DNA of 58,852 nt from contig DATEUP010000275.1 in assembly GCA_035283065.1 (NCBI GenBank), forward strand, positions 1-58,852, given 5' to 3'. The DNA is from Thermoplasmatota archaeon. GTDB lineage: Archaea > Thermoplasmatota > DTKX01 > DATEUP01. This document shows positions 29,724 through 50,499 of this stretch, piece by piece. The notes below the pieces were generated by a model. It was not told where the DNA came from, did no database searches, and saw only the letters and a program-made list of their open reading frames with translations. A program made the position numbers and the translations under genes. Positions within the stretch are counted from its first letter, which is position 1. Every line of letters starts with the position of its first letter.

Positions 29724-29761
29724 GCGTTGAACGAGACGCCGTCTCGTGTATACTCGGGGCC

Positions 29762-32896: not shown

Positions 32897-33226
32897 ATGA
32901 ACTTCATCGGTGTACGCAACGAGGTCATCTTCTACTGCATGGTGTGGGAGAGCCGCGCCGAGCCGACGACCGGCTCGTTCGTGGAAATCCTGCGGGAGCA
33001 GTTCGCCCGCATCGCGCAGGAAGCGAAGATGGCGGTCGCCGAGGTCATCCAGTTCTGCCCGCCGAAGCTGCGCGACATCCTCCTCGGGCCTCCCGTGCCC
33101 CCGGTGACCCCGCCGGTCTCCCCGGTCTTCGCCGAGATCATCGTGATCGGCGAGCCCGAGGAACCGCCGATGTTCCCCGAGCGGGCACCGAACCCGGCCG
33201 GCCCGGGCCCCGTGACCCCGACCTAG
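32897..33226 (+). CDS. small protein (109 aa) ending ...RAPNPAGPGPVTPT
   Basis: AAGGTGAGG SD. Pro-rich C-terminal half. Confidence 0.6.
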   Translation: MNFIGVRNEVIFYCMVWESRAEPTTGSFVEILREQFARIAQEAKMAVAEVIQFCPPKLRDILLGPPVPPVTPPVSPVFAEIIVIGEPEEPPMFPERAPNPAGPGPVTPT

Positions 33227-33429: not shown

Positions 33430-33648
33430 GTGGCACGCAGCCAGGACGACTACTTCGACCAGAAAATTCCCCTCAACGTGCGCGTCGACCGCAAGATCCA
33501 CGGCCAGATCAGGCAGGTCGCCACGCGCGAGGGGCGTTCCACGTCGGACGTGGTTCGGGAGGCCCTCGCCCGCTTCTTGATGAACTGGAACCACGCCGCC
33601 AGGGGCGCGGAGGTCGCCCCCACCGTCACCCCAAGGCAAGCCGGCTGA
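33430..33648 (+). CDS. ribbon-helix-helix (CopG/Arc-like) transcriptional regulator
   Basis: The pattern IPLNVRVDRKIHGQIRQVATREGRSTSDVVREALARFL follows the RHH layout. Confidence 0.7.
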   Translation: MARSQDDYFDQKIPLNVRVDRKIHGQIRQVATREGRSTSDVVREALARFLMNWNHAARGAEVAPTVTPRQAG

Positions 33649-33986: not shown

Positions 33987-34009
33987 CGCGCGGCTACCCC
34001 AAAAAGGAA

Positions 34010-34031
34010 GCCCCCGGCTTGCGCCGGGGGC
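34010..34031 (-). terminator. rho-independent terminator (9-bp GC stem, TTGC loop; U-tract on minus strand)
   Basis: GCCCCCGGC-TTGC-GCCGGGGGC is preceded by AAAAA on the plus strand. Lies between convergent genes. Confidence 0.7.
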
Positions 34032-34056
34032 CGGCTGTCTCCCAGGTTGGCGTCCG

Positions 34057-34806
34057 TTACGGCGCCGTGTGCTTCAGCGTGACGACCTTGTTCAGGTCGG
34101 GCAGCACGGCGATGTTGACGAACGTGGCCGGCGGCGGCAGCGCGACGGCCGCATCGACCATCTTGGTGATCAGATCGTCGAGTTTGGCGTTCGCGTCCGT
34201 GACGCTGAACCCCTTGTCGACGGCGACCCCAAGCTGGACCAGCAACTGGACGATGTTCGACCGCAACACACTTCGCATCAGAAGCGAGGTGATGTTGGTC
34301 GGGAGGAGGCCATCGATCTGGTAAGAACCGCGGGTGTACTTCACTCCGCGGCGGTCGCCTGTCATGGCCGACGCCGCGTAGGGTCCCGGTCCTCGTTCTC
34401 CCAGAGCGGAGGTGCTGGTCATCTCGAGCGTGAACGCCACGCGCGAGAGCCAGTTGTTCGCCTTCTCGTCGACCTTCCGCTTGAACTCGTCTCCGTCGTT
34501 GGCGAAGACGTTGTCGTGGGCCTGCTTGGCGCCGACTTCCGAAGCCTCCATGTTGAATTCCATGAAGCGCTTGATGAAGTCCGCGCTACGGCCGCGCCGC
34601 GACACGAAAGCGGGGTTGACGAAAGGCCCGAAAGCGATGGCCGCTTCCTTTGCCAGAGCCGTCCAGTTCGCCGTCGCCAAATCCCACCGCTGCTTCATGA
34701 TGCTCGCCGCGTTCTTCAGGTTCTCCGTGAACCGCGTGAAGATTTGCGTCGGCACCACGTTCACCGGCGTGACCGGGAGGGTCGCCTCGAGGATGACCGT
34801 GGGCAT
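34057..34806 (-). CDS. monocistronic 249-aa protein, candidate abundant structural protein
   Basis: Only gene in the window with its own promoter-like region, a GGGAG SD and a canonical terminator. No recognisable family. Confidence 0.7.
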   Translation of the reverse strand: MPTVILEATLPVTPVNVVPTQIFTRFTENLKNAASIMKQRWDLATANWTALAKEAAIAFGPFVNPAFVSRRGRSADFIKRFMEFNMEASEVGAKQAHDNVFANDGDEFKRKVDEKANNWLSRVAFTLEMTSTSALGERGPGPYAASAMTGDRRGVKYTRGSYQIDGLLPTNITSLLMRSVLRSNIVQLLVQLGVAVDKGFSVTDANAKLDDLITKMVDAAVALPPPATFVNIAVLPDLNKVVTLKHTAP

Positions 34807-34839: not shown

Positions 34840-34856
34840 GGCTGGACCGTCCAGCC
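34840..34856. promoter_or_regulatory. 17-bp perfect palindrome GGCTGGACCGTCCAGCC
   Basis: Read directly. Lies between ATG 34806 (minus) and ATG 34881 (plus). Confidence 0.5.
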
Positions 34857-34865
34857 TCCGAGGGC

Positions 34866-34872
34866 TATAGTA
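34866..34872. promoter_or_regulatory. overlapping opposite-strand -10 hexamers (TATAGT plus strand, TACTAT minus strand)
   Basis: Plus strand: TGGACC-N17-TATAGT. Minus strand: TTGCAT-N17-TACTAT. Confidence 0.4.
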
Positions 34873-34880: not shown

Positions 34881-35165
34881 ATGGACCGCATGCAAGGGTT
34901 TTGGTGTTTTCGCGGCGCAACCGCTTGGCGGCTAAGGCGTTGCTGGTACGCCATCGTACCTCTGGCGTTTTTCGCACTGATGGCCGCCTGCTCCGGTCTC
35001 CAGCTTGAACGAGCCGGCGATGCGGCGGGCACGGCCGCCGAGGTGGCAGGAACCGCCGGGGCCGTTACAGGAAACCCCCTCTTCCTGGGCGCCGCAATCG
35101 CTTTGGGGGCGATCAGCGCGGGCCTGACGGGGGTTGGTCGCCTCATGCGCTCGAGGGGGAAGTAG
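34881..35165 (+). CDS. putative lipoprotein (94 aa)
   Basis: Basic n-region RLRR, hydrophobic core, lipobox-like ALMAAC, C-terminal hydrophobic segment. Confidence 0.5.
   Translation: MDRMQGFWCFRGATAWRLRRCWYAIVPLAFFALMAACSGLQLERAGDAAGTAAEVAGTAGAVTGNPLFLGAAIALGAISAGLTGVGRLMRSRGK
34945..34960. promoter_or_regulatory. operator-like palindrome GGTACGCCATCGTACC
   Basis: Perfect GGTACG-N4-CGTACC. Lies inside the 5' part of the lipoprotein ORF. Confidence 0.55.
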
Positions 35166-35512
35166 TGGACGTCCCGCAGGAAGTCCTCGCCGACCACTCC
35201 CTCGGGGTCCACACCAGCGCCGCGTTCGTGGTCATCTTCCTGGTGATGGGGATAAAGAAGATGATCCCCGAGTCGTGGAACCGCGCGCTGCCCCTGTTCG
35301 TGGTGATGATCTCGTTCGCCTACGCCTTCCTGTTCCACTACTTCAACAAGACGCAGGAGTTGGTGAACCCGATGCTCCTGGGATCGCAGATCGCCGCCGC
35401 CGCCATCTCCATCTTCTCCGGTGCCAAGACCGTCTTTGCGATGAGGTCGGATCAGAAACCCGCGGCCGCGGAACCGCCGGCTCCCCCGCCGCTTCCGCCC
35501 CCGCCTGCTTAG
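35165..35512 (+). CDS. three-TM small membrane protein (holin-like)
   Basis: The GTG shares a nt with the upstream TAG. Hydrophobic segments AAFVVIFLVMGI, LPLFVVMISFAYAFLF and GSQIAAAAISIF. Confidence 0.5.
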   Translation: MDVPQEVLADHSLGVHTSAAFVVIFLVMGIKKMIPESWNRALPLFVVMISFAYAFLFHYFNKTQELVNPMLLGSQIAAAAISIFSGAKTVFAMRSDQKPAAAEPPAPPPLPPPPA

Positions 35513-35522
35513 GAGGCACGCC

Positions 35523-35675
35523 ATGGCAAGCGCCGAGGAAGTCTTCGCCCGCCAGAACGAGATCAATCGCGACAGCCGCACGTTCACGTCGGTGCGCCCG
35601 GACGGCCCGGACCAGCGGCGCTCGGAGCGCCGGCCCAACCCAGCGGCGCCCGGCCCGGTGACGCCGACGTCCTAG
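35523..35675 (+). CDS. small protein (50 aa, below track cutoff) ending ...RRPNPAAPGPVTPTS
   Basis: AGGAGG SD 6 nt upstream. Hand-translated as MASAEEVFARQNEINRDSRTFTSVRPDGPDQRRSERRPNPAAPGPVTPTS. Confidence 0.55.
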   Translation: MASAEEVFARQNEINRDSRTFTSVRPDGPDQRRSERRPNPAAPGPVTPTS

Positions 35676-35699
35676 CTGGCGACGCGAGAGGATACGCTT

Positions 35700-36509
35700 T
35701 TGGGCATCGGAGACAGAACCGAGTTGATCTTCCTTCGCCTTGCGTTCGCGCAGGACGGAACCGGCATCGACCCGCGCCAGCTCCCGCCCAAGCAAGCCTT
35801 CGGCGAGAAACCGAAGGGGAGGGACCGACCGTTCAAGGTGTACGAGGATACGTTCACCGCGCAGGCGAAGAAACTCGCCGATGAACTGTCCATGGAGAAG
35901 GACCAGAAAGCGCGCACGCGCAACAACGGGTTTCGTATGCGCTCGCTGGTTCGCAAGATCGACGACGCCACGGCAGAGGTCAACTCCCTCGCCGCCTCGG
36001 GGCCGGTGCCCCCGGCCAAGGTGGCCCAGATGTGGATGGCCCTCAACCTCTTCGCCCGCACCATCGGCAATCCGAAGACGGGAGGGGGCGGGGCGATCGA
36101 CGTCAACGCCTCGGACTTTGCGTCCGCGACCAGTTCCTATGACGCGGCGGTGCGCGCCCTCAACGCCGGCTTCAAGTCCCTCGGCACGGACCAGAAGACG
36201 CGCGTGGAGACGTTTAGTCTTGCGTTGGTCCGCGAGTTCGAGACAATAGCCACGGAGGTCTTGGACAGAGAAGTCGTGCGAACCATCGAAGAACAGATCG
36301 AGGTGCTGACCGACGAGGTCAAGGCCCGCCCGCGTCCCGTTCGCGCGCCGCGCGAGGAACGGCGGACGGGTCCGGTTGTGCCCCCGCCGTCTCCCCTGCC
36401 CGACGAACCAGTGCCCCTACCCGAGACGCCGCCTCCTCCCGAAGAGGAGCCGCCGCCCATCCCGCCGCCCCCCATCCCCCAACTGGAGCCCGCGCCGGCG
36501 GCACGCTGA
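35700..36509 (+). CDS. hypothetical protein (269 aa), Pro-rich C-terminus ending ...EPAPAAR
   Basis: TTG start per the track. Weak match to the tail motif. Confidence 0.55.
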   Translation: MGIGDRTELIFLRLAFAQDGTGIDPRQLPPKQAFGEKPKGRDRPFKVYEDTFTAQAKKLADELSMEKDQKARTRNNGFRMRSLVRKIDDATAEVNSLAASGPVPPAKVAQMWMALNLFARTIGNPKTGGGGAIDVNASDFASATSSYDAAVRALNAGFKSLGTDQKTRVETFSLALVREFETIATEVLDREVVRTIEEQIEVLTDEVKARPRPVRAPREERRTGPVVPPPSPLPDEPVPLPETPPPPEEEPPPIPPPPIPQLEPAPAAR

Positions 36510-37222
36510 TGGCCAACCGCGTCAACCCCTTCACCGGCGAGGCCGTCGCCCTCGACGTCGAAGACCTGGTCCGCATCGGGCCGCAGGACAGTTCCAGGAG
36601 CAACCGCCAACCCACGCAGCAGGACTACGACTTCCGCGACCAGCTCCGGGCGCGCGTGCGTCGGTGGGACGAAATGCGGGCCGAACTGCGCGGCATTGTC
36701 GACACCTACCGCTTCCTCATCGACAAACTCCCCGTCCAACGCGACAGCCTGCTCCAGCTTTTCAACGAGCAGTTCGCCGCGGCCGTGAAGGCCGGCACCT
36801 CCGACCCCAACGTCGGCCTCGTCGAACGCCCGGACGCCACGTTCGGTCTCGAGACGCCGTCCATCAAGGCGGCGATGGCCGCCGAGGTCGGGCGCGTCCG
36901 CAAGGAGAAGGGGATCAACATCACCGAGTCGAGCGTGTTCATGCGCGGCGACTTCCGGCGCCTCTCCGAGGTCCAGAGGCTCGTGATCGAAGACGCCGGC
37001 TTCATGATCGGGGCGTACAGGGACGCGGTGCTTCTCGAAGACCGTACCCGCGGCGCCGAACGCCTCGACGAGGCCGACCGAATCGGCCGGCGCATCGTAG
37101 ACGACATCGACAGCGTGACGGGTGGTCTGTGGTCGAAGACCATCAAGGAACTGCCCGGGCCCGAGGCCGAGAAGGGGGTCAAGCCCGTCGAGAAAGAGCA
37201 GAGGGCGGCGCCGAGGCCATGA
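36509..37222 (+). CDS. tail-motif protein (237 aa) ending ...EQRAAPRP
   Basis: The ATG shares a nt with the upstream TGA. Confidence 0.7.
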   Translation: MANRVNPFTGEAVALDVEDLVRIGPQDSSRSNRQPTQQDYDFRDQLRARVRRWDEMRAELRGIVDTYRFLIDKLPVQRDSLLQLFNEQFAAAVKAGTSDPNVGLVERPDATFGLETPSIKAAMAAEVGRVRKEKGINITESSVFMRGDFRRLSEVQRLVIEDAGFMIGAYRDAVLLEDRTRGAERLDEADRIGRRIVDDIDSVTGGLWSKTIKELPGPEAEKGVKPVEKEQRAAPRP

Positions 37223-40200
37223 CGAACTTCGCACGAGGAGAACTGCCCCCGGGGCCGGCCCTCCCCCCCGAGTTCCGCGCCGGGCCGTCGACGACCCTAG
37301 GGACGCTGTCTCGGGAATTCCCCACCCTCGACGGCGAGGACATCGCCAGACTCCTCACCGTAGGCTTCCCAGAGGACGCGATCTCGCGCGGAGTCCACGA
37401 GGCCATTCGCAAGCGCCTCATCGACCAGACGACCGGCCTTATCGTCGGGATGCCCGGGGGCGGGCCGCCGCTCATCTCCACCCCCATCGAAGTGGACTTC
37501 TCCCGGTTCCTGGGCCAGCTTCGGGCCTCCGACGCCTACTACCGCCGCCCGGACGTGGTCGCCCGGATGCAGGGCGTGCTCGGGGTCAACCTCGGCGGCC
37601 AGGGCAACCGCGAGAAGCGCATCGGGGAGGCGCTGAACAGCCTGCTCTTGATCCTCCCGGACCTCCAGGAAGCGGTGAACGACGTCTGGGAGTTGACGTC
37701 CATCACGGGCGAACCCGCCAACCTCGACGACCAGCCGATCAATGTAGACGACGAAACGTGGGACAACGCCGTCCGCCACTTCGACCCCGACGAGGGCTTC
37801 TATTCGCGGCTCTTCGACATCATCGAGCCGCTGGTCGAAGAGGTCGCGCAGCACCCGCTGGCGACGTGGATGAGGTGGGGGATCGAGAATATCTTCTCGG
37901 CCATCGTGCGCCTCGCGGCGGTGTACGGCTCCGAGGTGACCCTCGAGCAGCGTTTCCCCGGCTTTACCGAGGCCAACCTCGACCCGCTGGTCGGCGATCT
38001 CTACGAGTACATCCGGTCGGAGGCGCAGCAGATCAAGGATCTGCCGGCCGCCAACGCCGAGCACCCGACCATGTTCATGACGATGGCGGCGTGGCCCTTC
38101 CCGCCGTGGTCGGCGTTTTCCTTCGTGGAGAACCAGGACATCCTTTCGGCCAAGAGCCTCCCCGAGATTCACCGGCGGATCATGATGGGCTCGGGCCTCG
38201 TGGATTCCCTCTTCGCCCTCATCGACGGCGGCAACGTCCCGGTGCGTCCGGGCCCGGGCGGACGCCCGAGGTTCCGCCCCCGGGAACTCTCGCCCGAACG
38301 GCAGGCCCGGATGCTACGGATGGTCGAGCAGATCATGCGCGCCATCGTCGACCCGCGCATGCCCCTGCGCGAGCTCCACAAGACTGTGCCTTTGGCCGTG
38401 TCGAGCAGTAACGCCCGCTTCTTGAACATCCTCGCCGAGGCAGGCAAGGACGGCCCGAGGGCGACCGAGCGGTTCTTCGAGCAGCTTTCCTTTTCGGCCG
38501 AGACGCGAGCGGCGAGCATCGCCAACATCCGCACGTCGGTGATCCGGTTCATCGAGTCGAGCTTCGCCTTCCCCAAGGGCAACGTCCTCCGACAGGTCAT
38601 CGTCGCCACGATCAAGCGCCTCAACGCCCAACTCGGCTCGCGCCTGAAGCTGACGCAGTCGATCCCCACCATCCCAGAGTTCCCGCCAGCGCAGGAGACG
38701 GTCGAATCGACCCTCGACGTGATCGCCTCCATGCGCGAGGGAGCCGGCGTTTCCGACCCGCTCGGGTCCGTGCCGCAGGGGATCAACAACGCCACCACGC
38801 GCGCCCTGTTCGCGCGGATCCAGCGCCTCGAACAGGCCATCGAGGCCGAGGCGACCAAGGGGCCGGGGGAACCCCTCAGCATCCCTCGGGTCGACCTCGT
38901 AACGGATGAAATCCTCCGCGCAGTGTTCCCGGCGGGGTCCAAGACATCCCTCATCAGCGACCGGGACCTGATCCAGGTGGTCGACCGCCTCTCGAAAGTC
39001 CGAATCCCCCTCGAGACGTACAGCAGCGCCTGGCGCAACTCCATCGTGAACCTCAATCTCCGCAGATTCGCCCTCGGCGGCAGGCAGCCCGCCGCCACCA
39101 TCAAGCGGTTCGAGAAGGAAGCCGTCGCCGACCGGGTCAACAAGGGCGCCAACAAGGTCGCCGAACGCGAGGCGACGGAGGTCGCGGAGACGAGCACGCC
39201 GGCGGCGGCCGCCGAGTCGACCCAGATCCGCGAGGAACTCCAGGGCACGCCCCCCAAGTCCGAGGCCAGGTCGCGGCTGGAGAACGCCCTCAAAATCCTC
39301 CGGCGCAACTCCCGCGGCCGGTCGCCCACGGCGTTCTCGGGCGCGGACATGATCTTCGTCTCGGCCGCCATCGCGTCCTTCGCGGTCGACAACCTGACCG
39401 AGGAGGAGTTCAACGCCATGCTCGCGGCGGATCTTCCCCAGGCGCTGGAGCCGGGCGAAGAGGTTATCACGCCCATCACCGTGTCGCCGGAGCTTACGCC
39501 GGCGAATCGAATCGGCCCTATCATCGAAAGGCTTCGGGCGAAGGGCGGCTTCGAGAAGGAGTCGTCAATCAAGGCGAGGCTGATCCTCGGCAACATCCAA
39601 AGCGCCATCATCGATCCGGCTACGGGATCTCGCGCGCCCCGCCAAAACCTAGAGCGCTTCCGGGCCGCGATCCAAGCGACCTTTGAATTGGCGAATCCCC
39701 GCGCCAGTCTGGTCGAGGGCAAACTGTCCGAGCGAGATTTTGCGACAACACTCCGCGCCGCCCTCGGCTTCGCCGGGCGGGCTCGGATCGGAAGCGACGC
39801 AGTCCGCCGCATCCTCGAGGCCGAGACCCGGCGCGTCCTCGAAGAGCCGGTCGAGACCCCGCAGGTCAACGAGCCGCGCGCGGACGTCGTCAAGCAGGAG
39901 TCGGCCCGCGTCGAAGAGCAGATGGCCGAGGGCGGCGGGAGTCCGCGCGATGAGGGGCGCTTCCGAACCGAGCAGCGGTCGCGGTCGAAGAACCCCGAAA
40001 CCTACCTCGGCTCGAAGATGCTCGGCGAGTCGTCGCCCTACATCGCCAAACTGTCAGAAACCCTCGGCGCCGTGTTCCGCCGGTCCTCGAGCGAGCGCGA
40101 GCAGACGGAGGTGAGACTTGCGAAGGCGAGCGCGATCAAGGCGTCCCTCGAGGCGGAAATCATCAACCGGCAAATCGACGTGGATGCCGCCCGGCAAGCC

Positions 40201-41259
40201 AAAGATGCCGCCCGACAAGCCGGCGATGCCGTCCGCGAAGACGTTCAGGCACGCAGGGAGCGGGCGAACCAGCGCGCACTCGACAAGGCGCGCGATCTTC
40301 TGACCATCTCCAACCGGGACATCCGGGAGGCAGAGCAGAGGCTCGTCTTCGTGCAAGCCTTCGAGAAGCTGCCGCTCGTGGCCCGACTTGCCGTGCGAGC
40401 CGGCAACCTCGTCACCCTCAAGGCCATCCGGCTTTTCTTCACCGCTCAGATCCGCGCCTTCCGCGAGGCCACCTCGACGCAGGAGCGCGCCTTTCCCGCG
40501 TTCGCCATGCAGCAGGGCACCGAGTACTTCTTCGGGTGGGGCATCGGCTTCATGATCGCGTTCTTCAACTTCCCCGCCGTCGTGTTCAAGGGCTTGATCC
40601 TCGGCACGAGCATCGGAAAGCGCAGGGAGATCGAGGACCTGATCAAGGCCGGCGACATCGAGGCCGCGCAGAAGGAACTGGCGGAAATGAAGGATCGCGC
40701 CGCTTCGTTCCGCGCGTTCAACGAGAGCGCGCTAGGGACCGTCGTTCGTATCCCGAGCCTTTCCTTGTTCGGCCTGCTGATCGACGCGGGAATCGAGGAC
40801 ATCGAGAGCTTCGTCCAAAACGCCGAAGGGACGCTGATCCCGAACCAGTTGGCCTTCAAGGCCCGCCGCCTCGCCGATCAGGTGAGGCAGGTCGACTTCC
40901 GGTTGCGGGACCTCGAGCTCGACAAGCCGGTCGAAATCCGGTCCATCCTCCGCGATCTTCGCGCCGCCTCCGATGGCGTCAAGGAGGACGGGCGCGTCAT
41001 CATCGCGCCGGTTCTGCGGGTGACCCCGGAGGATCGCCGCGCCATCGACGATGGGACCATCACGGTTCGTCGCGCCATCGAACTTCTCGGAGAAGAGGAC
41101 CTGATCCGGTCCCTTCAGGTGCCGGTGCCCGAGGAAGCACCTCGGCCGCCCGAAGAGATCCCGGTGCCGCCAACGCCCGAGGAGCAAAGCCGTCTGGAGC
41201 GGCAGGCTATTGAGGAGCCGGAGTTGTTCTTCCTAAGAAGAAGGGCGGCGAGGGGATGA
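37219..41259 (+). CDS. giant tail-motif protein (1346 aa) ending ...LRRRAARG
   Basis: ATGA overlap. Begins MTNFARGELPPGPALPPEF. No recognisable domain. Confidence 0.75.
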   Translation: MTNFARGELPPGPALPPEFRAGPSTTLGTLSREFPTLDGEDIARLLTVGFPEDAISRGVHEAIRKRLIDQTTGLIVGMPGGGPPLISTPIEVDFSRFLGQLRASDAYYRRPDVVARMQGVLGVNLGGQGNREKRIGEALNSLLLILPDLQEAVNDVWELTSITGEPANLDDQPINVDDETWDNAVRHFDPDEGFYSRLFDIIEPLVEEVAQHPLATWMRWGIENIFSAIVRLAAVYGSEVTLEQRFPGFTEANLDPLVGDLYEYIRSEAQQIKDLPAANAEHPTMFMTMAAWPFPPWSAFSFVENQDILSAKSLPEIHRRIMMGSGLVDSLFALIDGGNVPVRPGPGGRPRFRPRELSPERQARMLRMVEQIMRAIVDPRMPLRELHKTVPLAVSSSNARFLNILAEAGKDGPRATERFFEQLSFSAETRAASIANIRTSVIRFIESSFAFPKGNVLRQVIVATIKRLNAQLGSRLKLTQSIPTIPEFPPAQETVESTLDVIASMREGAGVSDPLGSVPQGINNATTRALFARIQRLEQAIEAEATKGPGEPLSIPRVDLVTDEILRAVFPAGSKTSLISDRDLIQVVDRLSKVRIPLETYSSAWRNSIVNLNLRRFALGGRQPAATIKRFEKEAVADRVNKGANKVAEREATEVAETSTPAAAAESTQIREELQGTPPKSEARSRLENALKILRRNSRGRSPTAFSGADMIFVSAAIASFAVDNLTEEEFNAMLAADLPQALEPGEEVITPITVSPELTPANRIGPIIERLRAKGGFEKESSIKARLILGNIQSAIIDPATGSRAPRQNLERFRAAIQATFELANPRASLVEGKLSERDFATTLRAALGFAGRARIGSDAVRRILEAETRRVLEEPVETPQVNEPRADVVKQESARVEEQMAEGGGSPRDEGRFRTEQRSRSKNPETYLGSKMLGESSPYIAKLSETLGAVFRRSSSEREQTEVRLAKASAIKASLEAEIINRQIDVDAARQAKDAARQAGDAVREDVQARRERANQRALDKARDLLTISNRDIREAEQRLVFVQAFEKLPLVARLAVRAGNLVTLKAIRLFFTAQIRAFREATSTQERAFPAFAMQQGTEYFFGWGIGFMIAFFNFPAVVFKGLILGTSIGKRREIEDLIKAGDIEAAQKELAEMKDRAASFRAFNESALGTVVRIPSLSLFGLLIDAGIEDIESFVQNAEGTLIPNQLAFKARRLADQVRQVDFRLRDLELDKPVEIRSILRDLRAASDGVKEDGRVIIAPVLRVTPEDRRAIDDGTITVRRAIELLGEEDLIRSLQVPVPEEAPRPPEEIPVPPTPEEQSRLERQAIEEPELFFLRRRAARG

Positions 41260-44200
41260 GCGCAGGACGCCACCTGCCGTTCTTCTTCGTGCCGGGTCCG
41301 GGCGGCGACGGGGCCGCCACCGCCGGCCTGTTCGTCAAGATCGACGAGGGGCGCTTCGCCGAGATCACCCCCGAGGACCTTGAGGCCGCCTTCGGCGAGG
41401 GGTTCGACGACCTCGAAGCCATCGAGATCCGGGACGCCGTCGTGGCGCTCTCGCTTCAGAACGCTTTCAAACTTCCGCCGACGCCGGGGATCACCGCGCG
41501 TCCCCTCGACGCGACCACGTTCGCCGACATCAAGCTGATCATCGAACGCCGGCAGTTCGCCCGCGACCGCGGAGACGAGGCCCTCAACTCCTCATGGTCT
41601 TTCGAGTTGGCCCGCGTGCTTCAGGCAACATTCCTTGCGCGCGTCGGGCCGGCCGGCGGCCTCGCCCGGGGCATCGGCATCACGGGTGCAGCGTTCCCTC
41701 TCGCGCGTCCCGACGTTGAGGACGTCACGCTCGATGACATCCGCGCCCTCAACGACGTGGAAAAGGCCCGGTTCGACGAGCATCTCAAGGGCATGGACGC
41801 CTATATGGCCCGCGTCAACGAGGCGCTGGCGGCGTCGATGAAGGTGAAGATCACCGAGCAGGCGCCCGTGTTCGAGCAGATCATGAAGGCCATCGACGAA
41901 CTGGCGGGGCCGGCCACCGAGGAACTGATCGAGGTAGCGCCCACCATCGCCCTGGTTCGGTTCCTCTCGGGAGGCGTCGACCCGGACCCGGACGGCCCCA
42001 GGCCCGAGAACATCGAAGACTACATCTGGGATCAGTACCGGGCGCTCTTCGCCTCGGATGGTCTCTTCACCCGGCTGGCACTCGTCAAGGACAGGATCGT
42101 GACCCTGCTGCCGCGGCACACGGGCCGCACGAAAATCTTCAACCTGCTTCAGGGGGACCTTCCGGTAGAGACCGAGCGCGAGGTCGGAGACGCCGAGGTC
42201 CAAAACGAGCCGGCGACCGAGGGCGGCGCTGGCCTCCTGCCCCTCATCGAGTACGCCGAGGTGCTCGGCGAACTTCTTCCTCAGATGCAGACGGTCGAGG
42301 ATCGCCTGGCCGTCATCGACGCCCTAAACGCCATCCGGGGGGAGATCGCCGCGACGGTCAAGAAGATCCGGGCCGTGCCCGGCGAGCTGTCGGCGAACCC
42401 GCCGAAACTGGCGACGTGGTCGCGGTTCATCCGGCGTTTCTCGGACTTCGCGCCCGAGGTCCAGCATCAGGCGTTCCTCATCATGGCCACGCGCGGCAGG
42501 CTCGAGGAGCAGGAAAACACCGAGACGGCGCTGCTTATCGAGGAGGGGTTCATCGTATTCCTGTCCGTTATCGCGGCCATCGCGGTCCTGCGGGGGGTTA
42601 AGACGGCGGGCACCAAGCCCCTCGGCCCGCGCGCGAGACTCAACCCGACCGTCAACCCCGTGGGCCAGCCGATTCTTTCGCGCCAGATGATCACGCGTGC
42701 GCAGCAGTTTACGTCGGCCGTCGAACGAACCGCCCGCGGCGCCTCCAAGATCAATCCCCCGGTCAACGACATGGAGACGAAGTTGTCGGTGTTTACCGAG
42801 CTTCGCAACGTCGCGCTTCGCGGAAACACGCGCCAGCTTTTCGAGGCGGCCGTCCAGGCGAGGGCGCAAAACCTCATCGACACCGGCGGGATCACCGCCC
42901 GGGGCGGGAAAGTGGTCAGGGCTTCGGGGATCGGCAAGATCACCCTCGATTGGGCCGCGAGGCTCATGCAAGCAGGAACAGCGAAGCGGGCGGTTGAAAC
43001 GATTCTTCTGGACCTCCGAAGCACCATCGTCACCGCCAACTCGATCGCCGAGTTCTCCGCGCTCCAGGGCAAGCCCCTGCCCCCGCGCAACCTCGCGGAG
43101 GCAGACGCGTTCACGCGCCAGATCCGAAGAACGATCCGGCAGGCGACGGGCGACCCGGATACGGCCCGCTTCAATCTGCAGAGCGTGGTTGAGTCGGCGG
43201 TACGGGAGGCGATCCTTCTGCCTGAGCAGCCGATCATCTCGAAGCAGGCACTGGCCAGGATCCTGTCGGCGGTTCGGGCGTCGGCGCGTCTGGCCGGCCT
43301 CACCGAGAGTCAGATCAACGGCCTCTTCGGCGAGGCGTTCCGCAACCTCGGGGTGATCAGGGTCTTCGAGCGGCCCCTCCCGGAAGTCCCGGAGATCGGG
43401 CCGATCGAAGTCGATATACCGATCAAGCCCTTGTTCTTCACCGCCCACGCCGTCCCGCCGCCGCTTTCGGACGCGATTCCGATGTCGCCCAACGTGCTCC
43501 CCGACCCGGTCTTCGTCCTCGACCTTTCGGCCGGGGTTTCCGGCGCCGCGGCCGCCGGCGGCAACCCCCTCCCGTCAAAAGACACCCCCGAGGGGGCCGC
43601 GCTGGCGCGGGGCGTGGAGGCGGTTTCGGCTACCAGGCCCACAGGGGCCGACACGGCCGCGATCACCTTCCGGCAGGTACTTGGCGCCCCGGTTTCGGCC
43701 GCTCTTCGCGGCCTGCTTTCCCCCGCAAGCCTGTTGGCGGCCCTCGAGGAAGCCATGGCCTACGGGGCCTTCCACCTGGCCCCGGCCGCGGTTCGGGGGG
43801 TGGTCGTCGAGCTCGTCGAAGCATTCAACTTGGGACCGTTCCTTGGAACGCCGCCGGTCCCCCCCGAGGTCGTCCTGCCCGTGGAAGACCTGGCCGACCG
43901 CTTCGTCGCCTCCCCGGACGGCCGGCACGAGGAGGTCGGACTCGCATGGGCGCAGGTCGTAGCGCGGGTCTTCCGCTTGTTCGAGACCCCCAACGACCCG
44001 GTGAACTTCCGGGCCCTCATCGGCGCGGCCAACCAGGGCGACCTTCTGGTCGCGGTCGGCGCCGGCGGGAACCTCCTCGGCAAGTCCCTCAAGGTCTTCA
44101 AGGGGATCGTCGGGATGGCCTCGCGGATGATGATCCGCCGCTACCTCAAGGGCGCCCCCCTCGGCAACCCCGACCCCGTCGCATGGCACTTCGTCTTGCA

Positions 44201-44726
44201 GGAACTCTTCTGGACGCCGGCCATGACCCTCCCCGGCATGGAAGGCGTGGTGGCCGAACTCGCGGACGCCGCGACGCTTGCGCGCGCCGCATGGCTGCGC
44301 GCTGTCGAGGCGAACGAGCGGTCCGATCCTCTCGGGGCCGCATCGCACGTCCGGGGCGCGGCCGGCCTGATCGACGAATATCAGCGCCTGTTTGATCAGG
44401 CCCGGCCCGCGCTGGAGTTCGGCGGGTGGGCGGACGCGGTCGAGGAGGACCTTCGCATGCTTCGGGACGCCAACGCGGCCGCGGCGGAACTGGCGGCCGC
44501 CGTCGCCTCGCGGCAGGATCAAGAACGCCGGAGGCTCCTCGAGTTCAACGGCCCGGCCCGCATGGAGCGCATGGCCGAGGAAGCGGAGCGAACGGGGGCA
44601 GAGGCCGAGGCGGAAGGCGCCCTGCCGCCGCCGTCGAAGGAATTCGCCTTCCCGGTGGGGCCGCCGCGGGGGCCGCTGGCCCAACGAGCACCCCGGCAAC
44701 CGCCGCGCGCCGCCACTCGCGGTTAG
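41256..44726 (+). CDS. giant tail-motif protein (1156 aa) ending ...PPRAATRG
   Basis: ATGA overlap. Begins MSAGRHLPFFFVPGPGGDG. No recognisable domain. Confidence 0.75.
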   Translation: MSAGRHLPFFFVPGPGGDGAATAGLFVKIDEGRFAEITPEDLEAAFGEGFDDLEAIEIRDAVVALSLQNAFKLPPTPGITARPLDATTFADIKLIIERRQFARDRGDEALNSSWSFELARVLQATFLARVGPAGGLARGIGITGAAFPLARPDVEDVTLDDIRALNDVEKARFDEHLKGMDAYMARVNEALAASMKVKITEQAPVFEQIMKAIDELAGPATEELIEVAPTIALVRFLSGGVDPDPDGPRPENIEDYIWDQYRALFASDGLFTRLALVKDRIVTLLPRHTGRTKIFNLLQGDLPVETEREVGDAEVQNEPATEGGAGLLPLIEYAEVLGELLPQMQTVEDRLAVIDALNAIRGEIAATVKKIRAVPGELSANPPKLATWSRFIRRFSDFAPEVQHQAFLIMATRGRLEEQENTETALLIEEGFIVFLSVIAAIAVLRGVKTAGTKPLGPRARLNPTVNPVGQPILSRQMITRAQQFTSAVERTARGASKINPPVNDMETKLSVFTELRNVALRGNTRQLFEAAVQARAQNLIDTGGITARGGKVVRASGIGKITLDWAARLMQAGTAKRAVETILLDLRSTIVTANSIAEFSALQGKPLPPRNLAEADAFTRQIRRTIRQATGDPDTARFNLQSVVESAVREAILLPEQPIISKQALARILSAVRASARLAGLTESQINGLFGEAFRNLGVIRVFERPLPEVPEIGPIEVDIPIKPLFFTAHAVPPPLSDAIPMSPNVLPDPVFVLDLSAGVSGAAAAGGNPLPSKDTPEGAALARGVEAVSATRPTGADTAAITFRQVLGAPVSAALRGLLSPASLLAALEEAMAYGAFHLAPAAVRGVVVELVEAFNLGPFLGTPPVPPEVVLPVEDLADRFVASPDGRHEEVGLAWAQVVARVFRLFETPNDPVNFRALIGAANQGDLLVAVGAGGNLLGKSLKVFKGIVGMASRMMIRRYLKGAPLGNPDPVAWHFVLQELFWTPAMTLPGMEGVVAELADAATLARAAWLRAVEANERSDPLGAASHVRGAAGLIDEYQRLFDQARPALEFGGWADAVEEDLRMLRDANAAAAELAAAVASRQDQERRRLLEFNGPARMERMAEEAERTGAEAEAEGALPPPSKEFAFPVGPPRGPLAQRAPRQPPRAATRG

Positions 44727-45148
44727 CCGGCGCGCAGCGCCCGGTAGACCCTGACCGTTTCCTCGACGCAGTCGCGTCCGTAAGCGAGCACGTCGCGTCC
44801 CCAAAAGCGAAGCGTCACCCACCCGGCGGCGCGCAGGATCGCGTCGCGCTCGTCGTCGTTGCGGGCCTGCGCCTCCGTTCTGCCGTGCCAGGCTTCGCCG
44901 TCGATCTCGACGGCAAGGCGAACCGCGGGGAAACCGAAGTCCGGGTGCAGGGGTTTGACGTCGGGGCACTGCTTGACGTAGAGGCCGGCGAGTTCGGACT
45001 GCTTGAGGGCGACCTCGTAGGCGATCTCGATGTTGGTGTCGCAGGTCCGCTGAAACCGCCCCGCCTGACCGGACTTCTTGAGGCTACGAACGAGCCTGCT
45101 GTTGCGTCCGAAGATCCGCCGGATAGCATCCAGGAGGGCGGGGCTCAC
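44723..45148 (-). CDS. DUF559/Vsr-like endonuclease-fold protein
   Basis: The pattern FPAVRLAVEIDGEAWHG ... DDERDAILRAAGWVTLRFW follows the DUF559 layout. Confidence 0.55.
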   Translation of the reverse strand: MSPALLDAIRRIFGRNSRLVRSLKKSGQAGRFQRTCDTNIEIAYEVALKQSELAGLYVKQCPDVKPLHPDFGFPAVRLAVEIDGEAWHGRTEAQARNDDERDAILRAAGWVTLRFWGRDVLAYGRDCVEETVRVYRALRAG

Positions 45149-45157: not shown

Positions 45158-45532
45158 CTATTTGAAGTCGAAGGACACGCTGACGAAGCGGATGGACCCC
45201 ACCCCCGCGCCCGTGGTGTCGCTCTCGATGGTCACCTTCTTGGCATTGGCAACCGCAAGCACATCCGCGACGAAGAAGGCCCCGGTGAATGCAGAGGGGA
45301 TGGTGTGCGTGAGGGCCGTGTCGATCCCGTCCAACCTGAACGTCAGAACGGTCGGTCCGTCGAGGGTGTTCAGACCCACGGTCCCCCGCACGTTCTGGAT
45401 CAAGCCCGGCCTGGTGGAAAGGTACTCCACGATTGACTCGGATGTGGCGGGGAGGGCACCCGGAGAGAGGCCGACGTTCAGATACCTCACCTGCCCTGAT
45501 GCCTGAGACCCCTCAAAACCCTGGATGATCAT
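45158..45532 (-). CDS. beta-rich protein with NTLDG module (124 aa)
   Basis: GGAGGAGG SD before MIIQGF. Module IQNVRGTVGLNTLDGPTVLTFRLDG ... IPSAFTG. Confidence 0.6.
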   Translation of the reverse strand: MIIQGFEGSQASGQVRYLNVGLSPGALPATSESIVEYLSTRPGLIQNVRGTVGLNTLDGPTVLTFRLDGIDTALTHTIPSAFTGAFFVADVLAVANAKKVTIESDTTGAGVGSIRFVSVSFDFK

Positions 45533-45686
45533 CTCAGCCTCCTCCGCTCCCGCCCCTTGCGGGTTTGGACGACGTGCGATTTTCGCCACCATTACAGGTA
45601 TCCCCTTAGCATCTCAACATAGTGATGATACCACAGGTGGCGTTCAATGGAAAGCGTCCGATGGCGGGCCGCTATCAGCGCCGGAC

Positions 45687-46535
45687 TCATCCGATCTCGT
45701 AGCTGACCACGAGCCGAATCGCTCCGGTGGTTCCGCCGGTGGCAGCCTCCACGCTTACGTCCTGGCCGTCCCCGACGCTGGCCGTAGCCGCAATGTCCAC
45801 GTCCGTAGTGTCCCCGGCGGGGATCACGGCCGTGATTGCCGTGGCAACCCCCGCGACCCGAATGGTGACCGTGGTTGATCCGTCGAGTGTGTTGCTCGGG
45901 ATGCTGATCCGGATCCGGCTGATTGTGGAGTTCCGGGTGGCGCGGTAGGATGCCAGGTTCTCGGTGACCGCCGTGGAGGGCACATTGCCGGAAAACAGGT
46001 ACGCCGTGGTCGCGGCCGGCAGTCCTGCGGTGGGCCCGTTGCCGTGGATCATCATCGTTCCGCCCGGCGTCGCAGGCGAGAACACGTAGGCGACCAGCAT
46101 CGGTAGGCCGGCAGGCGGGTTCTCGACCCGGACGGGCCCTGCGCCCCCTCCGAGCTGGACCTGAACGATGTAAGTTCGGTCTTCCGCGCCGAGCTTGTCG
46201 ATGCGTTGGAAGTTGACGTGGGAGATCGAAGCGAACCCGCCCTCGGTGACGTCCTGGCGGATGATCCCGCCGAGGGGGAGGTTAGGGTTGCCCGATGGCA
46301 CCTGATGGACCATCTGGAGCGTCGCCGTGCTTCCGGCCGCCCCCGCCGAGAGCTGGCCGTCGAAGAAGAGCCAGATGAACGAACCCGCCGGCACGCCCGT
46401 GATGTCGAGTTGGACGACGTCGACGAACACCGCGAACTCGGCCGTGACGGGTGCGTTCTGGAGCGACGCCTGAAACTGCTTGAAGAACGTGACGCTTCCG
46501 GCGCCGGGGACCGGGGGTTGGGGGAGGTTCGTCAC
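45687..46535 (-). CDS. beta-rich protein (282 aa), C-terminal NTLDG module
   Basis: Module ISRIRISIPSNTLDGSTTVTIRVAG ... IPAGDTT. Confidence 0.65.
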   Translation of the reverse strand: MTNLPQPPVPGAGSVTFFKQFQASLQNAPVTAEFAVFVDVVQLDITGVPAGSFIWLFFDGQLSAGAAGSTATLQMVHQVPSGNPNLPLGGIIRQDVTEGGFASISHVNFQRIDKLGAEDRTYIVQVQLGGGAGPVRVENPPAGLPMLVAYVFSPATPGGTMMIHGNGPTAGLPAATTAYLFSGNVPSTAVTENLASYRATRNSTISRIRISIPSNTLDGSTTVTIRVAGVATAITAVIPAGDTTDVDIAATASVGDGQDVSVEAATGGTTGAIRLVVSYEIG

Positions 46536-46538: not shown

Positions 46539-47531
46539 CTACAAGAACTCCTTGAGCATGTCGCCATAGTGGTGGTCCCAGAGGTGACGTTCAAGGAAAA
46601 CCGTTCGCTGCCGGCGGGCGTACTTCTTCCACTGGTCGAAGGTCAACAGACCCTTCACGACCGCCACGGCGTTCTCGATGGAGCGGAAGACCGGGATGGC
46701 GTCGCCGAACTCGACCTCGAGGCCCCGAATCTCCCACGTGGCGTAGGAGCGTGCGGACGCGATCCCCTGAAAGAGGCGCTCCGGGTAGTACCCCTTGATG
46801 TCGTAGTGGTTTACCCCGAGGACCACCTTCCCCGACTTGTAGAAGCGGACGAGGTCCTCGTTGCCGAGGATGCCCTTGTGGTTGGATAGACCCGCCTGCT
46901 CCCAACCGGCGCCGCAGTAGGCGAAGTTGAAGGCCCGGGAGATTGCCTGCAGGAGCTTGAGGCGGATGCCCGAATACGGGTGCGCCCCCTTCGGACTGAT
47001 GTAGTTGTTCCCGGCGAAGACCACGTCGTACTCGGGCGCGGCCTTTTCGACGTCCTCGTCGGAGCGGAAGAGGAAAGGGTCCTCGCTACCGTAGAGGGTT
47101 CTAACCTTGTCCCGCACGCCCTGATGAATAAAGTACGTGGAGTAGTCCGGGTCGGCGTGGTTCATGTACATCCGGTGGATCAGGGGAAACTGCCGGCGCA
47201 CATCGCCGGGGTAGAACGTGCGGATCTCTTCGTTCCAGCAGAGTATAGGCACGTGTTCGCGGGCGATGATGTCGAGCACCTCCGGGTGGAAGAGGCCGTC
47301 CGGTAGCCAGAGGCCGTTGTGCTCGACGAGAGCGTGCGTGGGCTTCCACCGGCGGATGCCGGTTCGGATCACCTTCGCGTGGTCTACCGTACTGGAGACG
47401 TGCGTCCAGACCTGTTCGTCGCCTACGATCCGCTTGAGGGCGTCCGCCTTGTGCTGGTAGCGTCGGTTGCATCGGGGGACGTACAGGAGCCGCACGACGG
47501 GAAGTTTAGTTTGAAACCCTTGATCGGCCAA
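46539..47531 (-). CDS. CgeB-like glycosyltransferase
   Basis: The pattern DVVFAGNNY ... GILGNEDLVRFYKSGKVVLGVNH ... ERLFQGIASARSY follows the CgeB/DUF3880 layout. TTG start per the track. Confidence 0.6.
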   Translation of the reverse strand: MADQGFQTKLPVVRLLYVPRCNRRYQHKADALKRIVGDEQVWTHVSSTVDHAKVIRTGIRRWKPTHALVEHNGLWLPDGLFHPEVLDIIAREHVPILCWNEEIRTFYPGDVRRQFPLIHRMYMNHADPDYSTYFIHQGVRDKVRTLYGSEDPFLFRSDEDVEKAAPEYDVVFAGNNYISPKGAHPYSGIRLKLLQAISRAFNFAYCGAGWEQAGLSNHKGILGNEDLVRFYKSGKVVLGVNHYDIKGYYPERLFQGIASARSYATWEIRGLEVEFGDAIPVFRSIENAVAVVKGLLTFDQWKKYARRQRTVFLERHLWDHHYGDMLKEFL

Positions 47532-50145: not shown

Positions 50146-50499
50146 GTGCAGCACGCGTTCAACCTCAACGGGCCGCTGGTCGTAGGCGACGACATCGACG
50201 GCCGCCACAACTGGGGATTCACCGGCACGGAGAACTTCGTGGTGTTCCGCCGCGAGAACGCGGGCGCCGGGGGAACCACCACGCTTGAACTTCGTCGGGG
50301 CGGTGTCGCCATCGCCTCGGCCACGTTCACGCCGGCGGAAGGGGCCAACGTCCAGAAGACGGTGGCGCTTGCCGGCGCGTTCATCGCGACGACGCAGTAC
50401 AGCTTCCACGTTACCACGGTCGAGACGGCAAGCGGGATCGGGGTCAACCAGCTCCCCGCAGACGCCTCGGCCGCACTCGACGTGACGAGGACTGCCTGA
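50146..50499 (+). CDS. beta-rich protein (117 aa)
   Basis: GTG start inside the 242-aa track ORF. Sequence TTTLELRRGGVAIASATFTPAEG resembles the module family. Confidence 0.5.
   Translation: MQHAFNLNGPLVVGDDIDGRHNWGFTGTENFVVFRRENAGAGGTTTLELRRGGVAIASATFTPAEGANVQKTVALAGAFIATTQYSFHVTTVETASGIGVNQLPADASAALDVTRTA

Follow-up and report, generated by a model that had tools for sequence, protein, structure and literature searches.

Four translationally coupled orphan genes with a common C-terminal tail in a complete 58.85-kb genome

What is encoded by four adjacent genes whose products add up to 3008 aa and resemble no described protein family, and what might be the purpose of the short basic tail in which all four end? 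The genes, here named p1 to p4, lie in the window (the whole stretch of 58,852 nucleotides analysed), which represents a complete genome of 58.85 kb. Replication and recombination genes are present in this genome, namely those of a SNF2 helicase and of a Rad52/Erf-type annealing protein and exonuclease, together with several DNA methyltransferases, DUF5131 and a RecF/SMC-like ATPase in common with Pseudomonas, Yersinia and Salinibacter phages. Judged from these sequences, what lies outside the block resembles a phage in its genes for replication, recombination and methylation. Using Pfam and PHROGs, no capsid, portal, terminase or tail genes were recognisable across the complete genome; any shell on which tails could dock is for this reason hypothetical, and the element is only putatively a virus. 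Scans for Rfam families and tRNAs found none.

The gene block and its upstream neighbours

The four genes are located on the plus strand and comprise p1 (35700-36509, 269 aa, with a TTG start), p2 (36509-37222, 237 aa), p3 (37219-41259, 1346 aa) and p4 (41256-44726, 1156 aa). All four frames are open. Their stop-start junctions read TGATG for p1/p2 (1 nt) and ATGA for both p2/p3 and p3/p4 (4 nt each), in agreement with the original description of four ORFs overlapping by 1-4 nt. The block was also correctly described as ending stop-to-stop against a nuclease gene: the TAG of p4 (44724-44726) overlaps the stop codon of a convergent gene for a DUF559/Vsr-like nuclease (44723-45148, minus strand).

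A lipoprotein gene, a holin-like gene and a 50-aa ORF had been placed directly before the block, and all three are present there on the plus strand. The lipoprotein (34881-35165) is a 94-aa protein with a lipobox (FFALMAAC), a C-terminal transmembrane (TM) helix and a basic end. It is conserved in a second genome described below (91 aa) and has no PHROG match. From its sequence it resembles a small lipoprotein or a unimolecular spanin, but its periplasmic part is only approximately 25 aa. The last nucleotide of its gene overlaps the start of the next (35165-35512), encoding a holin-like membrane protein of 115 aa whose C-terminus is rich in Pro and which matches PHROG holins weakly (phrog_1299, E=0.006; phrog_1129, E=0.023). 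No endolysin was found. The 50-aa ORF (35523-35675), also conserved in the second genome, ends in PNPAAPGPVTPTS, an ending in common with a 109-aa protein (32897-33226; E=6.5e-5). Just upstream of the lipoprotein gene is a sigma-70-like promoter match on the plus strand (TGGACC-17-TATAGT, 34843-34871; a consensus match only), preceded by the inverted repeat GGCTGGAC/GTCCAGCC. The block is on the same strand as the lipoprotein/TM and holin-like genes and is tightly packed behind them, and p1-p4 probably make up the distal end of an operon of seven genes headed by these two. With the gene order and overlaps observed, ribosomes would translate the four genes as a coupled unit; the transcript probably begins at about 34875 and would also encode the lipoprotein/TM and holin-like proteins.

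A second genome (L001; Logan SRR22388270, 58,790 bp) retains all four genes with identical overlaps. The amino acid identities of p1, p2, p3 and p4 to their counterparts are about 69, 75, 72 and 55% (74-75% for p2 and 54-55% for p4), with dN/dS values of 0.29, 0.30, 0.28 and 0.52, respectively, making p4 the fastest evolving of the four; as a comparison of two genomes at approximately 70% identity, this measure of conservation is shallow. Long ORFs in sequence of 66% GC may be non-coding shadows cast by genes of the other strand. Indeed, the plus frame at 18850-25272 is open across real minus-strand exonuclease and Rad52-like genes, and p3 and p4 are overlapped by minus-strand ORFs of up to 574 aa. 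Such an artefact is refuted here, its probability being practically nil, by the lengths and overlaps kept in the second genome despite a dS of approximately 0.65-0.9, by the dN/dS values, and by independent gene callers, which recover these four genes from more than ten contigs. The GC content by codon position in the plus frames of p1-p4 (about 0.70/0.50/0.81-0.86) is likewise that of real genes. As the sister genome keeps the layout with dN/dS of 0.28-0.52, p1-p4 are genuine, conserved genes.

Orphan helical proteins with a common C-terminal tail

No family match was obtained for p1-p4 in Pfam or PHROGs (at E<=1 for p3 and p4) or in NCBIfam (at E<=0.1 for p3 and p4), and nothing significant in PADLOC, where p1 gave a sub-threshold MTase_I match (E=0.006, 13 bits). 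Searches of 50,697 phage records (INPHARED; tblastn and megablast) and a PDB sequence search with all four proteins gave no match. Word-seeded HMMER analysis of 5.8 billion clusters using p3, p4 and a 249-aa protein (34057-34806) recovered the same lineage only, a full phmmer search of p3 residues 147-1346 against 1.84 billion representatives recovered P0002 only, and a scan of IMG/VR and GTDB genomes with p3 gave no relatives. In collections of up to approximately 15 billion proteins, p3, p4 and the 249-aa protein are thus found in one sister genome only, the sole relative of p3 being P0002 (72%) and that of p4 being P0004 (54%). The original description of the four as unknown genes is borne out, no library or database searched having returned anything beyond the sister genome; confident homology to a well-known family, on which that description was to stand or fall, was not found in profile or sequence libraries. 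Profile searches and structure prediction had both been proposed: the former found no family and the latter gave unusable models. AlphaFold2 with two-sequence alignments predicted all-helical content at a pLDDT of 37.4 for p4 and 36.7 for p3 residues 147-1346. Foldseek matches of these models in BFVD (tape measures, ATV ORF800 and others) are meaningless, as TM-scores were 0.05-0.12 and the query pLDDT was 37; with RMSD values of 30-50 A they were set aside as long-helix noise.

In p1, the N-terminal ~200 aa are helical; a spacer rich in Pro comes next (~65 aa, nt 36312-36491), and APAAR (nt 36492-36506) forms the tail. Like p2, which ends in RAAPRP (nt 37202-37219), p1 contains neither Cys nor His. 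Both giant proteins are predicted to be all-alpha and are Cys-free, with Pro-rich stretches before their tails: p3 ends in ELFFLRRRAARG (tail nt 41236-41256) and p4 in RAATRG (nt 44706-44723). Pro makes up 6.5% of p3 and is evenly spread, and in the low-confidence model helices run for only 15-30 residues before a break, apart from those at residues ~940-1145. The only confidently modelled part of p3 is a set of coiled-coil-like long helices (residues ~959-1046, nt 40093-40356, plus strand), containing DAARQAK as a 21-nt x 2.5 tandem repeat.

It had been stated that the four proteins lack TM segments, and this is incorrect for both giants. In p3, a hydrophobic TM-like segment (residues ~1100-1133, nt 40516-40617, plus strand; GTEYFFGWGIGFMIAFFNFPAVVFKGLILGTSIG) contains a stretch at ~1104-1132 (FFGWGIGFMIAFFNFPAVVFKGLI) with a Kyte-Doolittle value of 1.86, nearly all residues of which are invariant between the two genomes; it sits in the most conserved part of p3 (blocks of 84-90% identity). 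In p4, a single strongly hydrophobic TM-like helix was located on the Kyte-Doolittle scale (residues 427-446, nt 42534-42593, plus strand), reaching 2.36 at 427-445 (LIEEGFIVFLSVIAAIAVL), bordered by EE at one end and by R/K at the other and largely conserved in P0004. The reported absence of Walker motifs is essentially right: the sole regex match, GGNLLGKS at p4 residue 937, was dropped as a P-loop, its Gly being non-conserved and the site lying within a predicted helix. No catalytic signature was found in p1-p4, as had been claimed, and searches of p3 and p4 for internal repeats found none. Paralogy of p3 and p4 (BLASTP E=0.008 over 125 aa) was rejected on an hhalign probability of 4%. The N-terminal Pro-Gly-Pro element that had been proposed as a shared feature is present, but it is not conserved in the second genome (VPLGGNG in p4, PQGP in p3, and no such element in the counterpart of the 28530-29723 protein) and was discarded. 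No N-terminal signal peptide was seen in p1-p4 on reading the sequences, no predictor having been run.

The basic tail reported for the block is real and more significant than had been implied, as it marks 11 proteins across the genome. The tails of p1-p4 (...APAAR, ...RAAPRP, ...RRRAARG and ...RAATRG) are conserved in the second genome. Among 637 six-frame ORFs of 50 or more codons, [R]AAxR occurs 0-2 residues from the stop in 11, ten of which are genuine genes; about 0.4 would be expected by chance (Poisson P ~3e-11 for the ten genuine proteins). An eleventh protein (13254-14138) carries the variant RGAPRP. The tail spans 5-8 residues, mostly follows Pro/Gly-rich, non-helical sequence, and is conserved in the second genome while the preceding linkers diverge. 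It is a protein-level motif, encoded by differing codons. An origin as by-product of an embedded ribosome-binding site was rejected because of these differing codons and because three tail genes, p4 and the 21043-25272 ORF among them, have no co-directional gene downstream.

Tail-bearing genes are spread over five loci. Besides p1-p4, they encode a 312-aa helical protein among early-type genes (1781-2719, minus strand; ...HRAAPRAP) and, on the plus strand, three adjacent paralogous helical proteins of ~290 aa (13254-15844; RGAPRP, RGAARP and PRAAPRAP), a third giant orphan of ~1409 aa (21043-25272; ...PPARRAARS), a 397-aa protein (28530-29723; ...PPARRAAR) and a 1031-aa HEAT-repeat protein (within 28530-32857; ...RRAAPRAP). 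The last of these gave the only significant match of the other tail proteins in Pfam, PHROGs, NCBIfam and PADLOC (HEAT_2, E=8e-19). A split of the third giant into 975 and 442 aa in another contig is due to a scaffold gap of Ns and has no biological meaning. The three ~290-aa paralogues (E=4e-23 and 4e-4) have N-termini with MPNG, and a scan of JGI metagenome contigs with their alignment found two contigs of the same element only. The tail set amounts to ~7000 aa, or approximately one third of the coding capacity, and contains about 4 Cys (~0.06%), with His depleted too; p1-p4 have no Cys in 3008 aa, whereas the 20 ORFs counted as annotated or enzyme-like have 86 in 5294 aa (1.6%). Proteins destined for places outside the cytoplasm are typically depleted of Cys and His in this way.

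Virion-carried proteins and competing explanations

It is possible, and is proposed here tentatively, that p1-p4 are late, virion-carried proteins of the internal or ejection type, recruited via a common C-terminal docking peptide. Our best guess, by analogy, is that they are closest in function to the internal-core/ejection proteins of podoviruses, in an element whose structural genes are all unrecognisable. Each product is all-alpha by prediction and Cys-free, with no signal peptide seen by reading, and a Pro/Gly-rich tether leads to [R]AAxR at the free C-terminus. This peptide may dock all 11 proteins on one receptor, most simply the inside of an assembling shell, in the manner of the C-terminal coat binding of P22 scaffolding protein or of an encapsulin C-terminal loading peptide. 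As no signal peptide was seen by reading, release in a particle at lysis would be the simplest way out of the cell. Thereafter, by analogy only, the conserved hydrophobic helices of p3 and p4 could insert into the envelope of the host as the genome is delivered. The depletion of Cys and His, the enrichment of the tail, the three paralogues of ~290 aa, the lysis-type neighbours, the phage-like remainder of the genome and the all-alpha character with conserved hydrophobic segments count for virion carriage; the HEAT-repeat protein, a plausible receptor that itself bears the tail, counts against it, as do the absence of recognisable capsid, portal, terminase or tail genes, the absence of a p3 relative in IMG/VR, the length of the tail and the unusable structure models.

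The ejection proteins of T7 (gp14-gp15-gp16) and P22 (gp7-gp20-gp16) are likewise encoded by contiguous, co-directional late genes, small members preceding giants that exceed 1000 aa, and the order of two small and two giant genes recalls T7 gp13/14/15/16, gp16 being approximately 1300 aa. They too are mainly alpha-helical, with hydrophobic membrane-inserting segments, and evolve fast enough to be hard to detect by sequence. In architecture only, the p1-p4 block matches a T7-like core (contiguous genes, helical products, TM-like segments). The p1-p4 proteins differ in having no sequence or profile similarity to these, no lytic transglycosylase domain and no adjacent portal or tail genes. To our knowledge, the T7 and P22 ejection proteins have no common C-terminal peptide.

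The scaffolding protein of P22 is a mainly helical protein of 303 aa with a charged C-terminal coat-binding element, a 36-residue helix-turn-helix, which directs the protein to the procapsid interior, and cargo fused upstream of this element is encapsidated with it (PMC9962691). The three ~290-aa helical paralogues match it in size and character and, by this analogy, look like scaffolding proteins. Here, however, a peptide of 5-8 residues, much shorter than the P22 element, follows a Pro/Gly tether in place of a charged helix-turn-helix of ~35 aa, and no coat protein was found. We know of no description of a single tag of this kind being used in nature by 11 different proteins. Encapsulin cargo is loaded through C-terminal peptides. 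A dedicated mechanism that brings cargo into the HK97-fold shell of encapsulins is outlined in PMC8346489. The tail resembles such signals as a short, conserved C-terminal peptide placed after a flexible linker on otherwise unrelated proteins. It differs in that the cargo would be giant helical orphans rather than enzymes, in a phage-like mobile element, and neither Linocin_M18 nor HK97 was matched in the scanned ORFs or the precomputed Pfam tables. The [R]AAxR peptide is also unlike any encapsulin loading peptide known to us.

Other roles were weighed against carriage in a virion. A rather unlikely one is that the proteins are non-virion intracellular scaffolds, serving replication, a compartment or the takeover of the host, and that the tail is a short linear motif recognised by a receptor built of helical repeats, such as the 1031-aa HEAT protein, comparable to importin/NLS or PEX5/PTS1 recognition. 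The HEAT-repeat protein is encoded 3 kb upstream, the tail lies 0-2 residues from the free C-terminus as in C-terminal peptide ligands, its genes occupy five loci including 1781-2719 among early-type genes, and no virion hallmark genes were found in the genome. Yet the HEAT protein bears the tail itself, and intracellular scaffolding would leave the extreme depletion of Cys and His in exactly the tail set (against 1.6% Cys in the genome's enzymes), the coupling of the block to lysis-type genes and the conserved TM-like helices with no obvious role. These last two features would be accommodated by an envelope complex made in the infected cell, tied to the lysis cassette and acting in egress, lysis control or superinfection exclusion. 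It would be membrane-anchored or envelope-spanning, its spacer coming from p1 (Pro-rich and TonB-like) and its hydrophobic helices from p3 and p4. The probable common operon with its start-stop coupling is consistent with such a complex, as are the 65-aa spacer of p1 and the Pro-rich ends of the holin-like protein, p3 and p4. It is nevertheless decidedly unlikely: no signal peptide was seen by reading on p1-p4, 3008 aa greatly exceeds any known lysis or exclusion system, the holin assignment is weak (E=0.006), and seven other soluble helical proteins with the same tail would be left unexplained.

Less likely still is a siphovirus or myovirus tail module, with p1 and p2 acting as chaperones of tail assembly, p3 as the tape measure and p4 as a protein of the distal tail or hub. 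Like tape measures, p3 is long and helical; it has a stretch of coiled coil, and its C-terminal third contains a conserved hydrophobic segment. It is preceded by two small genes, and tape measures were among the top Foldseek matches. Those matches, however, are the ones with TM-scores of 0.05-0.12 from a model of pLDDT 37, and no tape-measure, tube, sheath, chaperone or baseplate match was found anywhere in Pfam, PHROGs or NCBIfam. There is no in-frame slippery heptamer X_XXY_YYZ (Y = A or T) in p1, p2 or p3 and no chaperone frameshift of the G/GT type, the high, even Pro content and short, broken helices of p3 are unlike an extended tape measure, and the common tail would go unexplained. Ejection or cargo proteins carried in a virion remain the best available reading, on indirect evidence.

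A possible protein-addressing code

In its widest form, which we regard as unlikely, the proposal is that p1-p4 belong to the particle-building and cargo machinery of an undescribed bacterial dsDNA virus lacking an HK97 capsid, portal and terminase, in which a universal C-terminal [R]AAxR docking peptide directs the products of about a third of the 58.85-kb genome, namely 11 Cys-free, mostly giant, all-alpha orphans, to one site of assembly. If this were true, a virus would naturally possess a code that addresses proteins across its whole genome. As an addressing signal, [R]AAxR would tag a whole set of unrelated proteins for a common destination and might serve as a packaging tag; we know of no earlier natural case of a phage-like element tagging an unrelated protein set with one short peptide. 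Phage-like and complete, with no recognisable capsid, portal or terminase, the genome is a clean example of viral dark matter, and the role of p1-p4 would help to define how particles are built and delivered in this lineage.

Coding status and sequence features of p1–p4

The four ORFs p1 (35700-36509, TTG start, 269 aa), p2 (36509-37222, 237 aa), p3 (37219-41259, 1346 aa) and p4 (41256-44726, 1156 aa) were located on the forward strand exactly where the original prediction had placed them, and the start-stop coupling described for them was found at the junctions TGATG, ATGA and ATGA (overlaps of 1, 4 and 4 nt). As had also been described, p4 ends stop-on-stop against a convergent nuclease gene (DUF559/Vsr-type), their stop codons overlapping. 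The GC content of the window is 66% and long shadow ORFs are present; one forward frame is open from 18850 to 25272, running across exonuclease and Rad52-like genes that are real and lie on the minus strand. The coding status of p1–p4 was therefore checked directly. Their codon-position GC (~0.70/0.50/0.82-0.86) matches that of real genes of this genome, and independent gene callers predicted the identical four genes on more than ten metagenomic contigs. In a sister genome (L001, Logan SRR22388270; 58,790 bp) all four genes are present and overlap by the same 1, 4 and 4 nt. Amino acid identities to L001 are 69, 75, 72 and 55% for p1 to p4, with dN/dS values of 0.29, 0.30, 0.28 and 0.52, p4 being the fastest-evolving; these comparisons rest on two genomes, the window and L001, and the conservation evidence is shallow for that reason. 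p1–p4 are genuine genes under purifying selection. The likelihood that they are non-coding shadow ORFs is negligible, that reading being refuted by the L001 conservation, the dN/dS values and the independent gene calls.

No cysteine occurs in the 3008 residues of p1–p4, in which histidine is very scarce, compared with 86 cysteines in 5294 residues (1.6%) of twenty annotated or enzyme-like ORFs of the same genome. All four C-termini consist of Pro/Gly-rich sequence (the Pro-rich spacer of p1 is 65 residues long) followed by a short basic tail, namely APAAR in p1, RAAPRP in p2, RRRAARG in p3 and RAATRG in p4. Contrary to the claim that transmembrane (TM) segments were lacking, both giants (p3 and p4) carry TM-like hydrophobic segments, at residues 427-445 of p4 (Kyte-Doolittle 2.36) and ~1104-1132 of p3 (Kyte-Doolittle 1.86). 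The latter lies within the most conserved block of p3, is near-invariant between the window and L001, and has a coiled-coil-like stretch just upstream (~959-1046). Conserved blocks of p3 are found at residues 250-400 and 1050-1200. Internal repeats are absent, and the reported lack of Walker motifs stands, the sole Walker-A regex match being non-conserved and within a predicted helix. The HExxH motif is absent, and no signal peptide was seen in p1–p4 on reading by eye. The Pro-Gly-Pro element noted at the N-termini is not kept in L001.

Searches of p1–p4 against Pfam, PHROGs, NCBIfam and PADLOC gave no significant match, and neither tblastn and megablast against INPHARED phages nor PDB sequence searches gave any. 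In a database of 5.8 billion clusters, p3 and p4 retrieved their own query cluster and the L001 orthologue and nothing else; a full phmmer search of p3 residues 147-1346 against 1.84 billion representatives returned the L001 orthologue (P0002) alone, and neither IMG/VR nor 185,579 GTDB species genomes contain a relative of p3. Relatives of p3, of p4 and of the Cys-free 249-aa protein encoded at 34057-34806 were limited to one sister genome (54-85% amino acid identity) and a 1.2-kb fragment. The description of these four genes as unknown thus holds, profile, phage, PDB and billion-cluster searches having given the sister genome only; as judged by these searches, p1–p4 are true orphans outside every known family. 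AlphaFold2 models built from two-sequence alignments have mean pLDDT values of 36.7 (p3) and 37.4 (p4), with pLDDT above 70 confined to long helices at p3 ~976-1036, and DSSP analysis of these models (mean pLDDT ~37) describes them as essentially all-alpha. Foldseek matches were disregarded (TM-scores 0.05-0.12), and paralogy of p3 and p4 is unsupported (hhalign probability 4%).

Distribution of the C-terminal tail

The 637 stop-terminated frames of the genome that reach 50 codons or more were all scanned for the tail ([RHGP]AA.?R, 0-2 residues, stop). Of the eleven matches obtained, ten fall in genuine genes; the overall frequency of the motif would give ~0.4 C-terminal occurrences (P ~3e-11). 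The tail described for p1–p4 is present, and is found on six further genuine genes: a 312-aa gene (1781-2719, minus strand) and, on the plus strand, two ~290-aa paralogues (14142-15002 and 15005-15844), a third giant of ~1409 aa (21043-25272), a gene at 28530-29723 and a 1031-aa HEAT-repeat protein (29762-32857). A third ~290-aa paralogue (13254-14138, plus strand) carries the variant RGAPRP and is the eleventh member of the set, in which the forms RAAPRAP (three times), RAAPRP, RRAAR(S/G) and GAARP also occur. These eleven proteins make up about one third of the genome, are nearly free of cysteine (~4 in ~7000 aa) and, except for the HEAT-repeat protein, are family-less orphans. The frame of the third giant is the one that continues back to 18850 as a shadow; its apparent split into 975 and 442 aa (contig scaffold_561) is due to a run of Ns, not biology.

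An origin of the tail as a by-product of the ribosome-binding site of a coupled downstream gene was rejected: its codons vary among copies, three carriers have no co-directional gene downstream, and RAAxR is kept where the p4 linker has diverged between the window and L001.

The three paralogues are adjacent (13254-15844, plus strand), helical, 294, 286 and 279 aa long and share an N-terminal MPNG motif; in size and character they look like phage scaffolding proteins. The 312-aa tail gene is convergent with an SNF2 helicase gene (10-1905, plus strand), the two overlapping by 125 nt (1781-1905); the strand opposite its [R]AAxR tail codes for the end of the helicase, which is acidic and Pro-rich.

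Genome content and the probable operon

Independent contigs of 58.6-59.0 kb have differing breakpoints, and two link the end of the window to its start; the window is therefore a complete genome of ~58.85 kb, circular or circularly permuted. Its recognisable genes have phage-type replication, recombination and modification functions, among them the SNF2 helicase, a Rad52/Erf-type annealing protein and exonuclease, a DnaD-like loader, a RecF/SMC-like ATPase (23-33% identity to Pseudomonas, Yersinia and Salinibacter phage proteins), several DNA methyltransferases, DUF5131, five glycosyltransferase-like genes and a dTDP-sugar isomerase. Capsid, portal, terminase and tail families were detected in none of the ORFs of the window, and once the enzymes and the orphans bearing the tail are set aside, none of the unannotated ORFs reaches the length of a typical terminase or portal; tRNA and Rfam scans gave no matches. 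We infer that the element is viral. The load of sugar-modifying genes (25269-28511, 46539-47531 and 8882-9304) is unusual, comprising GT9, GT2, two to three Glyco_trans_1_2-like genes, the dTDP-sugar isomerase, a DSPc phosphatase and small SAM methyltransferases, and may point to the glycosylation of either particles or the host surface. Two beta-rich, Cys-free proteins (45158-45592 and 45687-46535, minus strand) share a C-terminal domain of ~100 aa (E=6e-13) and are candidate variable receptor-binding or capsid-surface proteins; the second (282 aa) has no counterpart at the syntenic position of L001. Further beta-rich, Cys-free proteins are encoded at 47558-48073 and 50499-51035.

A lipoprotein-type ORF, a holin-like protein and a 50-aa ORF directly precede p1–p4, as first reported, and lie on the same strand. 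Within 34881-35512, a 94-aa ORF combines a lipobox with a TM helix at its C-terminus, and its stop overlaps the next start. It resembles a unimolecular spanin but has only ~25 periplasmic residues. The holin-like protein, translationally coupled to it, has a weak PHROG match (E=0.006); no recognisable endolysin was found nearby. Given these same-strand small genes and a promoter-like site at 34843-34871, the transcription unit is likely 34881-44726. A second common C-terminal tail, PNPA(G/A)PGPVTPT(S), occurs on the 50-aa protein (35523-35675) and a 109-aa protein (32897-33226; BLASTP E=6.5e-5) and is kept in the sister genome; in view of the five glycosyltransferase-like genes, it could serve for glycosylation or docking. 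A 72-aa Arc/CopG-type ribbon-helix-helix regulator (33430-33648, plus strand; PHROG E=1.5e-4) is encoded between the HEAT block and this operon, and a strong terminator-like hairpin (34009-34032) follows the minus-strand 249-aa gene.

Possible roles of p1–p4

Encapsulin cargo is loaded via C-terminal peptides, while T7 gp14/15/16 and the P22 ejection proteins are internal or ejection proteins, and it is on the latter that an analogy with p1–p4 is based. The reading we favour, tentatively, is that p1–p4 are expressed late and are particle-associated; on this analogy they would be internal or ejection proteins, with the hydrophobic helices of p3 and p4 engaging the host envelope. The tail would act as a docking peptide that recruits all members of the set to a common receptor, in the simplest case the inner face of an assembling shell. 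Precedents exist in encapsulin cargo loading (PMC8346489) and in the P22 scaffolding protein (303 aa, helical, with a charged C-terminal coat-binding element), where fusion of cargo to that element is sufficient for encapsidation (PMC9962691). The three ~290-aa helical paralogues resemble such scaffolding proteins, each bearing the tail tag. Defining sequence features of tape measures, T7-type core proteins, encapsulin cargo and P22-type scaffold domains were tested for and not found, and the resemblances of p1–p4 to these four systems are architectural only.

The tail might instead belong to an intracellular scaffold or addressing system in which it is read by the HEAT protein, itself a tail bearer; we consider this unlikely. 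A lysis-linked complex at the envelope, which the neighbouring holin-like and lipobox genes would suit, is doubtful. A tape-measure or tail module, which the length of p3 might suggest, is more doubtful still, the tests of family, frameshift and neighbourhood having gone against it. There is a small but real probability that the block is part of something categorically new, namely a virus that lacks the hallmark genes and uses a C-terminal addressing code across its genome. p1–p4 are linked to lysis-type genes within a phage-like genome, and a tethered C-terminal peptide is common to them and seven other orphan proteins. The block is filed under giant helical proteins of a phage late operon that bear a presumed targeting tail.
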